Part shown: in pieces, positions 34,137-36,773 of the stretch
Numbering within the stretch: the first letter of the stretch is position 1
How the letters are laid out: every line of letters begins with the position of its first letter
Assembly (NCBI GenBank): GCA_029558955.1
Contig: JAKQCW010000150.1
Location: forward strand, 18,079-82,078
Reading direction: 5' to 3'
Length of the DNA: 64,000 nucleotides
Source of the DNA: Chloroflexota bacterium
Lineage (GTDB): Bacteria > Chloroflexota > Anaerolineae > JAAEKA01
The notes under the pieces: model-generated
The model's input: the letters and a program-made list of their open reading frames with translations, nothing else
Database searches by the model: none
Told to the model about the DNA's origin: nothing
Made by a program: the position numbers and the translations under genes

Positions 34137-36773
34137 ATGAAAGCACATCTGTCCCCTCGCCGGGTAGCCCCACTGGTGTCAGTGTTCCTGCTGCTGGCCC
34201 TGCTGATTTCCGCCTGCGGCGGCGCGGCTACCACCGTCCCCGCCGCTGCCACCACAGCCCCTGAACCCGCATCGCCCAGCGAGCCTGCTGCGCAGGCGCC
34301 GACCGAAGGGCAAACCACGTCCGATATGGGCAGCCTGGTCTTCTTCTCGACCCAGTTCGTGCCGGTCGAGGAGGCTGAGAAGTTTCGCGCCATCCTGGCC
34401 GATGGCGGCTTTGATTTCACCGGTTCGGAGGAAGGCCCGCTGTTGGATCTGGTGACGGCTGAGGCGCAGGCCGGTCGCGGCACCGTGGACCTGGTCGGCG
34501 CGCTGCACGGCACCTTCCCGCCCTTGCAAAAGGTCGATGCCATGGCCAACATGATCGACACGGCGGATGATCTCTCGACCAGCCGGGACTTCGCCCAGGC
34601 CTTCCTGGAAACCGGATTGCTGGGCAGCGAAGACTACCTCTACTACGTGCCCTGGATGCAGGCCACCTACATCATGGCCGCCAACCAGGCGTCGCTGGAG
34701 TATCTGCCGGCTGGCGCCGATACCAATGCGCTGACGTGGGAGCAGTTCGCCGACTGGTGCCAGGCCATTTACGAAGGCGAGGGCCAGGCGCTGTGCGGCC
34801 TGCCCCATGCCGGCCTGTTCCATCGCTTCCTTCAGGGCTACATGTGGCCCTCCTTCACGGGCGGCATGGTGAGCAACTTCCAGAGCAACGAGGCCGCAGC
34901 CATGCTGGAGTGGCTGCGCGATGACCTGTGGCCCTACATCAACCCGCAGTCGATCAGCTACAGCTTCATGCAGGAGCCCTTGCTGGCCGGCGAGGTGTGG
35001 GTCGCCTTTGACCATACCGCCCGCCTGCTCAATGCCTTCAACGAGCAGCCCGATGAGTTCGTGGCCTTCCCCGCGCCCTCGGGCCCGGCTGGCCTCGGCT
35101 TCATGCCGGTGATCGTCGGCCTGGGCGTGCCCAAGACCGCGCCCAACCCTGAGGCAGCCATCCAGGCTATCGACTATCTGACAACGCCTGAGGTCCAGGC
35201 CCGCGTTCTCAAGGAGATGGGCTTCTTCCCTGTGGTGGGCGGCGTCGATACGTCTGACCTGCCGCCCGGTGTCGCCATCGAGGCCGCGGCTGTCAGCGCG
35301 CAGGCCAACGCGGCCAATGCGCTGCCGGCGCTGTTGCCGGTAGGACTGGGCGACCGCGGCGGCGAGATCAACCAGATCTTCCGCAACGCCTTCGATCGCG
35401 TCGTGCTCAACGGCGAGCAGGTCGCCGCGGTGCTGCCCGGCGAGGCCGCCAACCTGCAAGCGTTGATGAGCGAGACCGGCGCGCCCTGTTGGGCGCCTGA
35501 CGCGCCGTCGGACGGCCCCTGCCAGGTCAACGCGCCCGCCTCGGCCTTGATAGCCGAGCCGGTGGACGTCACCTTCTTCTCCACCCAGTTTGTACCCGTC
35601 GAGGAGCAGGAGAAGTTCCGCGCCATCCTGCAGAAGGCTGGCTTCGACGTGACCGGCTCCGAGGAAGGCCCGCTGTTGGATCTGCTGATAGCAGCGGCGC
35701 AGGCCGGCTCTGGCGCCGTCGATGTGGTCGGCGCGCTGCACGGCACCTTCCCACCCTTGCAGAAGGTCGATGCCATGGCCAACATGATCGACCTGGCGGA
35801 AGACTTGTCGGCCAGCCGCGAGTTCGCGCCGGCCTTCCTGGAGACTGGCCTGCTGGGAACCGAGGACACCCTGTATTACATTCCCTGGATGCAGGCCACC
35901 TACATCATGGCCGCCAATCAGGCGTCGCTGGAGTACCTGCCGGCCGGCGCCGACATCAACGCGTTGACCTGGGAGCAGTTGAGCGACTGGTGCCAGGCCA
36001 TCTACGAGGGCGAAGGCAAGGCGCTGTGTGGCTTCCCGCAGGCCGGACTGTTCCATCGCTTCCTGGAGGGCTACATGTGGCCCTCCTTTACCGGCGGCAT
36101 GGTGACCCAGTTCCAGAGCGCCGAGGCTGAGGAAATGCTGACCTGGCTGCGCGACGACCTGTGGCCCTACGTGCACCCCGAGTCCATCAACTACAGCTTC
36201 ATGCAGGAGCCGCTGCTGGCCGGCGATGTATGGGTGGCCTTCGACCACACGGCGCGCCTGTTGAACGCATTCAACGAGCAACCGGACGAGTTCGTGGCCT
36301 TCCCCGCGCCGGCCGGGCCGGCTGGGCGCGGCTTTATGCCGGTGATCGTCGGTTTGGGCATCCCCAAGACCGCGCCCAATCCCGACAATGCTGCGGCCTT
36401 GATCGACTACCTGACGCGCCCCGGCGTGCAGGAGCAGATCCTGCGCGAGCTGGGCTTCTTCCCGGTGGTCGGCGGCGTCAACACCACCAACCTGCCGGCA
36501 GGCGTGGCGCTGGAGGCTGGCGCAGTCGCGACCCAGGCCAACTCGCCCGACGCCTTGCCGGCGCTGTTGCCCGTTGGCCTCGGCGAACGCGGCGGCGAGA
36601 TCAACCAGATCTTCCGCAACGCCTTCGACCGCACGGTGCTCAACGGCGAGGACATCGCCACGGTGCTGGGTCAGGAGGCCGCCAACCTGCAGGCGCTGAT
36701 GAACGAGACCGGCGCGGCCTGTTGGGCGCCCGACGCCCCTTCAGACGGCCCCTGTCAAGTGGCGCCGCGCTAG
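34137..36773 (+). CDS. Tandem-duplicated (two complete domains) ABC sugar-type substrate-binding lipoprotein.
   Basis: It has the lipoprotein signal LLISAC. Two SBP modules of about 410 aa each are highly similar to each other, for example SLVFFSTQFVPVEEAEKFRAIL.. versus VTFFSTQFVPVEEQEKFRAIL... RBS GGAGGAG. Confidence 0.8.
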   Translation: MKAHLSPRRVAPLVSVFLLLALLISACGGAATTVPAAATTAPEPASPSEPAAQAPTEGQTTSDMGSLVFFSTQFVPVEEAEKFRAILADGGFDFTGSEEGPLLDLVTAEAQAGRGTVDLVGALHGTFPPLQKVDAMANMIDTADDLSTSRDFAQAFLETGLLGSEDYLYYVPWMQATYIMAANQASLEYLPAGADTNALTWEQFADWCQAIYEGEGQALCGLPHAGLFHRFLQGYMWPSFTGGMVSNFQSNEAAAMLEWLRDDLWPYINPQSISYSFMQEPLLAGEVWVAFDHTARLLNAFNEQPDEFVAFPAPSGPAGLGFMPVIVGLGVPKTAPNPEAAIQAIDYLTTPEVQARVLKEMGFFPVVGGVDTSDLPPGVAIEAAAVSAQANAANALPALLPVGLGDRGGEINQIFRNAFDRVVLNGEQVAAVLPGEAANLQALMSETGAPCWAPDAPSDGPCQVNAPASALIAEPVDVTFFSTQFVPVEEQEKFRAILQKAGFDVTGSEEGPLLDLLIAAAQAGSGAVDVVGALHGTFPPLQKVDAMANMIDLAEDLSASREFAPAFLETGLLGTEDTLYYIPWMQATYIMAANQASLEYLPAGADINALTWEQLSDWCQAIYEGEGKALCGFPQAGLFHRFLEGYMWPSFTGGMVTQFQSAEAEEMLTWLRDDLWPYVHPESINYSFMQEPLLAGDVWVAFDHTARLLNAFNEQPDEFVAFPAPAGPAGRGFMPVIVGLGIPKTAPNPDNAAALIDYLTRPGVQEQILRELGFFPVVGGVNTTNLPAGVALEAGAVATQANSPDALPALLPVGLGERGGEINQIFRNAFDRTVLNGEDIATVLGQEAANLQALMNETGAACWAPDAPSDGPCQVAPR

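Follow-up and report, generated by a model that had tools for sequence, protein, structure and literature searches.

Described systems with tandem binding domains

How the number and tethering of substrate-binding domains (SBDs) benefit ABC importers has so far been studied mainly in engineered constructs of GlnPQ and OpuA. In GlnPQ of Lactococcus lactis and other Gram-positives, a short flexible linker connects SBD1 and SBD2 within a single polypeptide. Held at the membrane, the tandem domains increase the number of binding sites close to the translocator of this type I ABC importer (PMC8025302). The window, a stretch of 64,000 nt from an Anaerolineae-like Chloroflexota bacterium, encodes a substrate-binding protein (SBP) that shares with GlnPQ the two complete substrate-binding domains in tandem, the short linker and, by prediction, the attachment to the membrane. 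Whereas the GlnPQ SBDs are fused to the permease, the SBP of the window is a separate, putatively lipid-anchored gene product, which ends at 36773 (stop codon TAG at 36771-36773), and permease 1 starts at 36834. GlnPQ SBDs belong to the small polar-amino-acid-binding class and are unlike in specificity and affinity. The modules described here, in contrast, are of the CUT1 sugar type (SBP_bac_1), are ~400 aa long, match no other Pfam families than SBP_bac_1/8/11/6, and are 81% identical and apparently equivalent. Their copy number also varies from 1 to 3 among species.

The ycjMNOPQRSTUV cluster of Escherichia coli is similar in that a GH13_18 phosphorylase is encoded beside a CUT1-type importer (there YcjNOP-V) and a LacI-type repressor, and YcjM is a characterised glucosylglycerate phosphorylase. 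However, YcjQRS, YcjT and YcjU are absent from the annotated window genes, which include GH38 and an MggS-like GT4 instead, and YcjN has a single module and not two. The receptor was rejected as a YcjN homologue, as similarity was not detectable (BLASTP best E = 0.28). Single-module members of cluster D/CUT1 (the Thermus beta-glycoside-binding protein 7C63-7C71, MalE, CbpB and UgpB) have the same fold, Pfam families and operon partners, but the protein of the window differs from them in its tandem arrangement, in the two conserved Cys pairs of each module and in its low identity (13-19%). Lastly, GgtABCD of Synechocystis, with the single-module GgtB, is an ABC re-uptake system for the compatible solute glucosylglycerol. 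It is conceptually similar, being a glycosyl-glycerol/glycosyl-glycerate osmolyte importer of an organism that synthesises these solutes as well, and serves as a lead only. Apart from the work on GlnPQ and OpuA, we found no free tandem SBP in a literature search that reached few subscription journals and is thus weak evidence. With GlnPQ as its closest precedent, the system varies a known theme and does not represent a new kind.

Architecture of the tandem receptor

The receptor gene and the region 5' of it contain the following features:

32826-32854, + strand: sigma-70-like promoter, part of the promoter/operator region 32826..32885
32833-32846, + strand: candidate LacI operator, palindromic, CCAAAACGTTTTGt, overlapping the sigma-70-like promoter region
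32865-32878, + strand: candidate LacI operator, palindromic, CCAAAACGTTTTGG, in the same promoter/operator region
32915 (near; likely true start)..33946, + strand: LacI-family repressor, 343 aa (Pfam LacI, Peripla_BP_3/1; NCBIfam)
34137..36773, + strand: tandem two-module substrate-binding lipoprotein, 878 aa
34137..34217, + strand: lipoprotein signal peptide, ending in the lipobox L-I-S-A-C with Cys27 (read from sequence)
34218..34334, + strand: Ala/Pro/Thr/Glu low-complexity tether, residues 28-66, predicted disordered (composition, pLDDT)
34335..35528, + strand: SBP module A, residues 67-464 (module HMM 895 bits; confident AF2 fold)
35529..35567, + strand: inter-module linker NAPASALIAEPVD, residues 465-477, 13 aa (sequence)
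35568..36761, + strand: SBP module B, residues 478-875 (module HMM 897 bits; AF2 model)

The lipoprotein gene starts with ATG at 34137, with a GGAGGAG ribosome-binding site 6 nt 5' of the start codon. Export and lipid anchoring of the protein are predicted from the lipobox LISAC, in which Cys27 is invariant and Ala26 nearly invariant (n = 57 doubles); a lipobox is present in 34/34 complete singles, 70/74 doubles and 2/2 triples. In the AF2 model pLDDT is <50 across residues 27-62. The linker contains neither a stop codon nor a second signal peptide, and linkers across the SBP family are 11-34 aa long. In the protein, lipobox Cys27 is followed by a disordered tether (~39 aa), and the 13-aa linker connects two complete SBP modules of the Venus-flytrap type.

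The initial annotation had described two complete, near-identical SBP modules in tandem, with boundaries at residues ~60-465 and ~470-878. This description was confirmed: residues 67-464 and 478-875 align without gaps with 324 of 398 positions identical (81%), the Pfam SBP families match twice, the earlier boundaries were correct to within a few residues, and the peptides quoted occur in the protein as written. The BLOSUM62 local score between the modules was 1747, against 41.9 +/- 5.6 (maximum 66) for 200 shuffles (z ~300). At the DNA level the repeat has a period of 1233 nt and the copies are 80.5% identical (85%, 91% and 65% at codon positions 1, 2 and 3), with dN 0.130, dS 0.643 and dN/dS 0.20. 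One segment (nt 35145-35325) is only 59-68% identical to its partner in the other module.

SBP_bac_1 (PF01547; 133.7 bits, cut-off 26) and SBP_bac_8 (PF13416; 120.7 bits, cut-off 27) each matched two stretches of the protein, above their gathering thresholds. Both modules are confidently folded in the AF2 model (mean pLDDT 80.5), but pTM of the whole protein is only 0.54 and therefore a fixed packing between the modules is not predicted. The fold is the two-lobed alpha/beta fold of periplasmic binding proteins, and the top 50 Foldseek matches were all CUT1-type SBPs (probability 1.00, TMt 0.63-0.76 (~0.7), E down to 2e-15). Each match covers one module, and none of these solved structures spans both. 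The matches are 13-19% identical to a module of the tandem protein and the CUT1 fold is generic, so that a ligand cannot be transferred from them. A PDB sequence search with one module gave marginal matches (E no better than 1.8e-4) and no clue to the ligand.

Repeats carry a general risk in metagenome assemblies, and this is the only point that favours an artefact, whether by collapse or misjoining during assembly or by a sequencing error that turned two neighbouring paralogous SBP genes into one. The initial annotation had already raised the concern of an assembly artefact. However, the copies differ at ~20% of bases and their longest exact run is 41 nt, so that assemblers are able to separate them. 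The same gene was independently assembled in at least three samples: it is identical in 3 JGI samples (3300009685, 3300009687 and 3300009690) and on one contig of 90 kb, and 0-2 SNPs were counted per 5.6 kb. Tandem architecture was also found in ~75 homologue clusters, mostly labelled Chloroflexota (75 complete double clusters plus 27 double loci, some on Mb-scale chromosomes), and the linkers are in frame and lack a signal peptide in ~75 clusters, as they do in genes on complete chromosomes. Furthermore, module positional orthology is maintained across species, since in the window's clade same-position identity (0.86 for Q_1 vs L001_1, 0.85 for Q_2 vs L001_2) is higher than in cross comparisons (0.81-0.82). 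The tandem SBP gene is not an assembly artefact; we regard this explanation as effectively refuted and its residual probability as negligible. For annotation this means that tandem SBP genes are to be kept whole and not marked as assembly errors, although the practical consequences are modest.

Operon partners and ligand class

Genes for two MalF/MalG-type permeases and a MalK-type ATPase lie alongside the receptor gene and are followed by genes for glycoside metabolism:

36785..36814, + strand: perfect 14-bp inverted repeat with a 2-nt loop, a putative intercistronic hairpin between the SBP stop and permease 1
36834..38234, + strand: ABC permease 1, 466 aa (Pfam SH3_3 + BPD_transp_1, hydropathy)
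38231..39121, + strand: ABC permease 2, 296 aa (Pfam BPD_transp_1; sequence; gene call on identical contigs)
39150..40307, + strand: MalK/UgpC-type ATPase with TOBE/OB regulatory domain (NF008653, 398 bits); longest-ORF coordinates, true start probably slightly downstream
40419..41714, + strand: GT4 glycosyltransferase, MggS-like (mannosylglucosylglycerate synthase; NF041101, full length)
41730..42959, + strand: mannosyl-3-phosphoglycerate synthase (MPGS; TIGR02460 458 bits, cut-off 351; PF09488)
43055..46174, + strand: GH38 alpha-mannosidase, MngB-like (mannosylglycerate hydrolase-like, below the NCBIfam cut-off)
46223..47092, + strand: mannosyl-3-phosphoglycerate phosphatase (MPGP) family protein (TIGR01486 245 bits, cut-off 165)
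47086..48846, + strand: GH13_18 phosphorylase, YcjM-like, probable glucosylglycerate phosphorylase (40% identity to YcjM)

The hairpin lies in a spacer of 60 nt between the SBP stop and the permease 1 start, and the start of permease 2 overlaps the stop of permease 1 by 4 nt. Permease 1 has an extracytoplasmic insert of ~200 aa after TM1 with SH3b-like motifs, and this insert is 37-76% identical between loci with one, two and three modules. LacI, SBP, two permeases and ATPase follow in this order in essentially all 77 related loci, and the LacI repressor gene lies 5' of the SBP gene in nearly all of them. The longest ORF of the repressor begins at 32699, and the start near 32915 agrees with the gene call on identical contigs. 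Two matches to the candidate LacI operator were observed where 0.1 were expected, and the operator core CAAAACGTTTTG is at the same place in 25/77 related loci, where it is usually paired at a distance of 31-33 bp. With its Pfam families, fold and operon partners the protein falls into cluster D (CUT1), and binding of a sugar or glycoside and its delivery to the translocator are predicted functions.

The gene neighbourhood points to a ligand class. The GH13 protein is 40% identical to E. coli YcjM over its full length (408 bits, E = 1e-140), while its best sucrose-phosphorylase-type match in the PDB scored only 175 bits, and it is probably a glucosylglycerate phosphorylase. YcjM-like GH13 genes occur in roughly 35/77 related loci, MggS-like GT4 genes in ~20 (the window's GT4 scored 228 bits against NF041101, below the equivalog cut-off of 640), and GH38 genes of ~900 aa lie 3' of the ATPase gene in many. 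MPGS is common only to L016 and MPGP only to L063 among the 77 related loci, which weakens the ligand argument from these two enzymes. The ligand is most likely an alpha-glucosyl/alpha-mannosyl glycerate-type compatible solute, with glucosylglycerate, mannosylglucosylglycerate or possibly mannosylglycerate as candidates. The initial annotation had named mannosylglycerate or glucosylglycerate on account of the neighbouring enzymes. The glycosyl-glycerate class is reasonable, but MPGS and MPGP are a poor basis for it, and the conserved enzymes (YcjM-like phosphorylase, GH38 and MggS-like GT4) fit glucosylglycerate/mannosylglucosylglycerate better than mannosylglycerate alone. No uptake system or ABC importer for mannosylglucosylglycerate or other glycosyl-glycerate solutes was found in the literature, again as weak evidence with subscription journals mostly uncovered.

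Module number, equivalence and role

The SBP family is isolated, with 690 of 1.84 billion representatives at E <= 1e-3. Fused double SBPs had been called uncommon, and indeed only 1 among the best 150 representatives had two full modules. Distant relatives of >600 aa were considered as proteins with extra modules, but turned out to be fusions to signalling domains. Orthologues in the same conserved operon have 1, 2 or 3 modules; doubles outnumber the other forms in several deep clades, and singles are common. In neighbour-joining trees, which carry no support values, 1-, 2- and 3-module architectures are interleaved on the permease/ATPase tree, and the modules of 74 doubles coalesce at 25 distinct nodes. 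The identity between modules of one protein is ~0.85 in every distance bin, and same-position identity exceeds cross-position identity by only 0.002-0.003 for distant protein pairs. Since the modules of one protein remain ~85% identical however distant the species, this points to repeated homogenisation or copy-number change. In the triple L021 the middle module is nearer to module 3 at its N-terminal end and nearer to module 1 at its C-terminal end, a pattern that matches the prediction for unequal crossing-over and is suggestive of it. Chimera tests on L023, L026 and L027 gave an ambiguous pattern, and the single-module L041, which sits within a group of doubles, lies at about the same distance from either module of its relatives. 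The 1.23-kb module would behave as a tandem repeat, in which unequal recombination or gene conversion may alter the copy number and may also hold the copies within one gene ~85% identical.

Modules A and B are both intact, and purifying selection acts equally on them. All 149 family-invariant columns are retained in both modules and contain none of the 74 differences between A and B; another 63 columns, 90-98% conserved, contain only 2. Between orthologues, dN/dS amounts to 0.118 in module 1 and 0.114 in module 2. Across the family no segment with a position-specific signature was found at the 20-column scale, only 2-5 single columns, and the divergent segment at nt 35145-35325 lacks position-specific signal as well. 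Still, the modules are not perfectly equivalent, as a few residues are position-specific: module position 181 is Asn in 93% of the non-terminal modules of doubles and variable in terminal modules and singles, and a Pro near the C-terminal Cys pair is retained in terminal modules and relaxed in module 1.

These data bear on the suggestion of the initial annotation that the protein may bind two ligands. A division of labour, in which the modules bind different related solutes and broaden the specificity of one transporter, as SBD1 and SBD2 do in GlnPQ, has that precedent in its favour, together with window enzymes that cover more than one glycosyl-glycerate, the 74 differences with the divergent segment, and the few position-specific residues; mannosylglycerate and glucosylglycerate would be an example of such a pair. 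However, the conserved columns are nearly free of differences, the divergent segment carries no position-specific signal, and repeated homogenisation or exchange of modules is hard to square with stable specialisation. In addition, single- and triple-module orthologues serve the same operon, and the singles the same enzyme set. Because the 149 invariant positions are retained under equal constraint in both modules, different ligands for A and B seem unlikely. About as unlikely is that unequal recombination in a repeat-prone gene of 1.2 kb left the second module as a mere by-product, with little or no functional gain. The many switches among 1, 2 and 3 modules on the operon tree and the common, apparently sufficient singles would fit near-neutral expansion, but strong and equal purifying selection (omega ~0.12), a median intra-protein dS of up to 1.2 without decay of either copy, the predominance of doubles in several deep clades, and a tether length that co-varies with module number, suggesting a tuned architecture, speak against it. 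Given that orthologues with one module run the same operon, a second module is not essential, and having two could be nearly neutral. With a median of 39 aa against 67.5 aa, the tethers of doubles are shorter than those of singles, so geometry, and not dosage alone, may matter.

A role mainly in signalling, or in avid binding of a polymeric glycan, in which the protein would not feed the transporter, seems quite improbable to us. In its favour, single-module proteins fused to HTH and PAS-HisKA signalling domains occur among the distant relatives, and repeated epitopes could be bound by tandem modules. Nonetheless, the receptor gene is part of a tightly packed operon of conserved order with two permeases and an ATPase (4-nt overlaps), the associated enzymes act on small glycosides, and Pfam detected no signalling domain in the protein. 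The avidity for a disaccharide-like solute proposed in the initial annotation requires a multivalent ligand and does not apply here, as the operon enzymes imply a small, monovalent glycoside.

Most likely, the protein serves a LacI-regulated CUT1 ABC importer as a doubled receptor with a single lipid anchor. Both modules would bind the same small glycoside, one molecule each, and whichever module is loaded would dock on the permease heterodimer (36834-39121) and trigger transport by the MalK-like ATPase. Two receptors per lipid anchor would hold twice the binding sites near the translocator, and the extra sites may speed up capture and delivery at low solute concentration. The effect would be one of receptor dosage, and neither of avidity nor of wider specificity, as in proposals for the multiple SBDs of GlnPQ and OpuA. 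After import, the solute would be degraded by two enzymes of the downstream genes, the GH38 mannosidase and the YcjM-like glucosylglycerate phosphorylase. As a whole, the reading as the extracytoplasmic receptor of a LacI-regulated CUT1 importer, with equivalent modules, a dosage effect, a glycosyl-glycerate ligand and a homogenised repeat, is one we rather favour. A more far-reaching proposal is tentative: that module number is an evolvable dosage dial and that this is the first glucosylglycerate/mannosylglucosylglycerate-type ABC importer identified. Recombination between the 1.2-kb modules would then shift copy number and homogenise the copies, while selection would keep them functional and tune the tether.

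The family is a clean case of concerted evolution of whole protein domains inside one bacterial gene, and the operon is a candidate for the route by which Chloroflexota take up glycosyl-glycerate osmolytes. Its orthologous transporters, in the same operon, use lipid-anchored receptors that are encoded as separate genes and made of one, two or three near-identical modules, which makes the benefit of SBD number and tethering testable by comparison. If module number indeed acts as a dosage dial, these loci would provide a natural 1x, 2x, 3x receptor series of the kind that is otherwise engineered in the GlnPQ and OpuA fields.

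Architecture of the tandem receptor

The open reading frame at 34137-36773 encodes a substrate-binding protein (SBP) built from two near-identical modules in tandem, as the initial annotation had correctly placed it: residues 67-464 (module A) and 478-875 (module B) align without gaps, with 324 of 398 positions identical (81%), and Pfam SBP_bac_1 and SBP_bac_8 each match the protein twice. The features considered here are the following.

32833-32846 and 32865-32878: palindrome pair CCAAAACGTTTTGt and CCAAAACGTTTTGG, consensus CCAAAACGTTTTG(G/t), overlapping a sigma-70-like promoter just 5' of the LacI start
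34137-36773, plus strand: two-module SBP gene, ATG start, TAG stop, 878 aa
36785-36814: perfect 14-bp inverted repeat with a 2-nt loop, in the 60-nt spacer from the SBP stop codon to permease 1
36834-38234: permease 1, MalF/UgpA-type, TM1 at residues 22-40
40419-48846, all on one strand: complete glycosyl-glycerate gene set of an MggS-like (mannosylglucosylglycerate synthase) GT4, mannosyl-3-phosphoglycerate synthase (MPGS), MngB-like GH38, a phosphatase of the matching MPGP family and a YcjM-like GH13_18

A GGAGGAG ribosome-binding site precedes the ATG of the SBP gene by 6 nt. Comparison of the modules gave a BLOSUM62 score of 1747, against 41.9 +/- 5.6 for shuffled sequences. In the DNA the repeat has a period of 1233 nt and 80.5% nucleotide identity, with conservation lowest at third codon positions (65%; dN 0.130, dS 0.643, dN/dS 0.20). 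An assembly collapse or duplication would yield identical copies, whereas a fifth of the bases differ between A and B and no exact run is longer than 41 nt. The linker NAPASALIAEPVD between the modules is free of stop codons and the ORF sequence shows no signal peptide on module B; therefore these are not adjacent genes read as one. The identical protein was called on four contigs, and three of these (JGI samples 3300009685, 3300009687 and 3300009690) agree with the window over 5.6 kb apart from 0-2 mismatches. A protein search turned up some 75 clusters of complete two-module proteins, 860-900 aa long. A genome scan detected relatives in 322 genomes; of the 77 loci that it returned, 27 have two modules (doubles) and 4 have three (triples), and some lie on Mb-scale chromosomes. 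Within the window clade, each of the two modules is nearest to the module at its own position in other species, and the duplication is therefore older than those species. The tandem feature is real, conserved and functional.

The N-terminal lipoprotein signal closes with the lipobox LISAC. Among the 110 complete proteins in the family, a lipobox was found in 106, and Cys27 is unchanged in all 57 aligned doubles. It is followed by a 39-aa tether of Ala, Pro, Thr and Glu that is predicted to be disordered (pLDDT <50 at residues 27-62). Tethers consist of acidic Glu/Ala/Pro/Thr repeats throughout the family (homologues P0086-P0120 compared with P0005-P0079), and their length from the lipobox Cys to the first module has a median of 67.5 aa in single-module proteins (range 45-90), but only 39 aa in doubles (range 26-62) and 37.5 aa in triples, which suggests that overall reach is tuned. 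The AlphaFold2 model (mean pLDDT 80.5) folds both modules confidently, but its pTM is only 0.54 and a fixed arrangement of the modules is therefore not predicted. Foldseek against the PDB matched CUT1-type sugar-binding proteins only (beta-glycoside-binding protein, MalE, CbpB, trehalose/maltose-binding protein and UgpB; 13-19% identity). Each match spans one module (TMq ~0.35, TMt ~0.7), and thus the two-module architecture is absent from the solved structures in the PDB. Four invariant cysteines per module (C208/C220 and C451/C462 in module A) probably form two disulfides.

Distribution and evolution of the modules

A module HMM counted one, two or three complete modules per homologue, and all share the operon order LacI, SBP, permease 1, permease 2, ATPase. 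An exhaustive search of 1.84 billion representatives gave 690 matches at E <= 1e-3, of which 151 reach E <= 1e-30, which shows that the SBP family is small and isolated; the entire multi-module group amounts to one or two clusters at 50% identity. Farther relatives (36-52% identity) are single-module and none has an extra module; instead, a few carry HTH or PAS-HisKA signalling domains as fusion partners. In the distant homologues P0154, P0204 and P0123 the lone module is joined to HTH + DUF4062, PAS + HisKA or a guanylate-cyclase-like fragment. This suggests that the module was recruited elsewhere as a sensor domain. The loci are mainly labelled Chloroflexota (Anaerolineae, Caldilineales, Ardenticatenaceae, Promineifilaceae, Leptofilum), and MAGs bearing the labels Acidimicrobiales, Synergistaceae/Aminobacteriaceae and Phycisphaerales contain singles, too. 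One double (L022, labelled Acidimicrobiales) and one triple (L026, labelled Cellvibrionaceae) cluster with Chloroflexota on the operon tree, and their labels could reflect mis-binning or horizontal transfer.

Modules of one protein are 0.79-0.97 identical (mean ~0.85), regardless of the distance between proteins. For protein pairs of 60-75% identity, same-position exceeds cross-position identity by just 0.002-0.003, and within-protein identity is higher than same-position identity in 100% of comparisons. On the module tree, the module pairs of 74 doubles meet at 25 distinct nodes, and 18 of these nodes are outermost. The permease/ATPase tree intermixes single and double loci: the singles L040 and L041 are nested in the double clade of the window and L011[2] is sister of L044[1]; all four triples form one clade. 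Within-protein dS runs from 0.27 (L035) to 2.4, with a median of 1.2. Either many independent duplications and losses took place, or gene conversion or unequal crossing-over has homogenised an old tandem at intervals. Module position 181 (column 183), adjoining the invariant TGGM motif, is Asn in 93% of the non-terminal modules of doubles and also in modules 1 and 2 of triples. Terminal modules and singles have Q, N or E there; in the window protein the residues are N247 (module A) and Q658 (module B). A Pro by the C-terminal Cys pair (column 392) is retained by 31 of 34 singles and by 97% of terminal modules, whereas only 36% of first modules have it. These marks, which hold across clades, favour an old tandem with homogenisation and position-specific selection, although convergence is a possible origin of such persistent marks. 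Direct chimera tests for unequal crossing-over were only suggestive.

Operon context and candidate ligand

The palindrome gave two matches against a chance expectation of 0.1, and its core is kept as a pair with 31-33 bp spacing in at least 25 of the 77 related loci. The palindromes are likely LacI operators, which would imply autoregulation. Upstream, on the minus strand, lie two adjacent B12-binding radical SAM genes of HpnJ/BchE type (28090-31192; 501 and 519 aa) and, between these and the LacI gene, a Hexapep-repeat gene of about 175 aa (32185-32712); they appear unconnected to the transporter. The hairpin between SBP and permease 1 may act as an intercistronic stabiliser or attenuator to fix the SBP-to-permease ratio; on the model of other ABC operons, it may favour expression of the receptor over that of the translocator. 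Permease 1 carries an extracytoplasmic insert of ~200 aa (residues about 45-245) between TM1 and the next TM helix, with two SH3b-like motifs (Pfam SH3_3, E = 5.8e-11). The insert, loosely comparable to the MalF P2 loop, is kept at 37-76% identity in all related loci, whatever the SBP module number, and might be a docking or cell-wall-binding platform.

Downstream, biosynthetic and degradative genes for mannosylglycerate/glucosylglycerate-type solutes are interleaved. MPGS scores above its equivalog cut-off and GT4 and GH38 under theirs. Just one of the 77 loci shares MPGS and just one MPGP; GH13 is present in roughly 35, GT4 in about 20 and a ~900-aa GH38 in many. MPGS and MPGP look like lineage-specific insertions in a GH38-GH13-GT4 block that is otherwise conserved. 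Over its full length, the GH13 shares 40% identity (408 bits) with Escherichia coli YcjM, by annotation and literature listing a characterised GH13_18 glucosylglycerate phosphorylase (PMC8950772), and its best sucrose-phosphorylase-type match in the PDB reaches only 175 bits. Alpha-mannosidase, glucosylglycerate phosphorylase and an MggS-like transferase are the set expected, through guilt by association, for mannosylglucosylglycerate/glucosylglycerate turnover, and on the same basis a glycosyl-glycerate is a plausible substrate of the transporter. The window SBP has no detectable sequence relationship to E. coli YcjN.

Probable equivalence of the modules and proposed receptor function

It had been suggested that the two modules bind two ligands or provide avidity. 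The 149 columns with at least 98% conservation among 188 modules contain none of the 74 differences between A and B; two fall in the 63 columns conserved at 90-98% and the remainder are in variable columns. In the window clade the orthologous dN/dS values are nearly the same (0.118 for module 1, 0.114 for module 2). Neither module is decaying, and nothing in the sequence points to diverged pockets, which disfavours two ligands. Avidity fits poorly because it requires a multivalent ligand, whereas the partner enzymes of the transporter act on small glycosides.

Chloroflexota are generally considered monoderm and receptors therefore need tethering. Two or three equivalent flytraps per lipid anchor would place more binding sites close to each translocator, and the permease heterodimer would be docked by whichever module is loaded. 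The closest described logic is that of GlnPQ, in which tandem substrate-binding domains, competing with each other for docking, give several sites by the translocation pathway (PMC8025302). The receptor differs widely from GlnPQ: it is a separate lipoprotein, and its modules are of the CUT1 sugar class, near-identical and variable in number. In architecture it is a new variation on a known principle, and the way it evolves is interesting.
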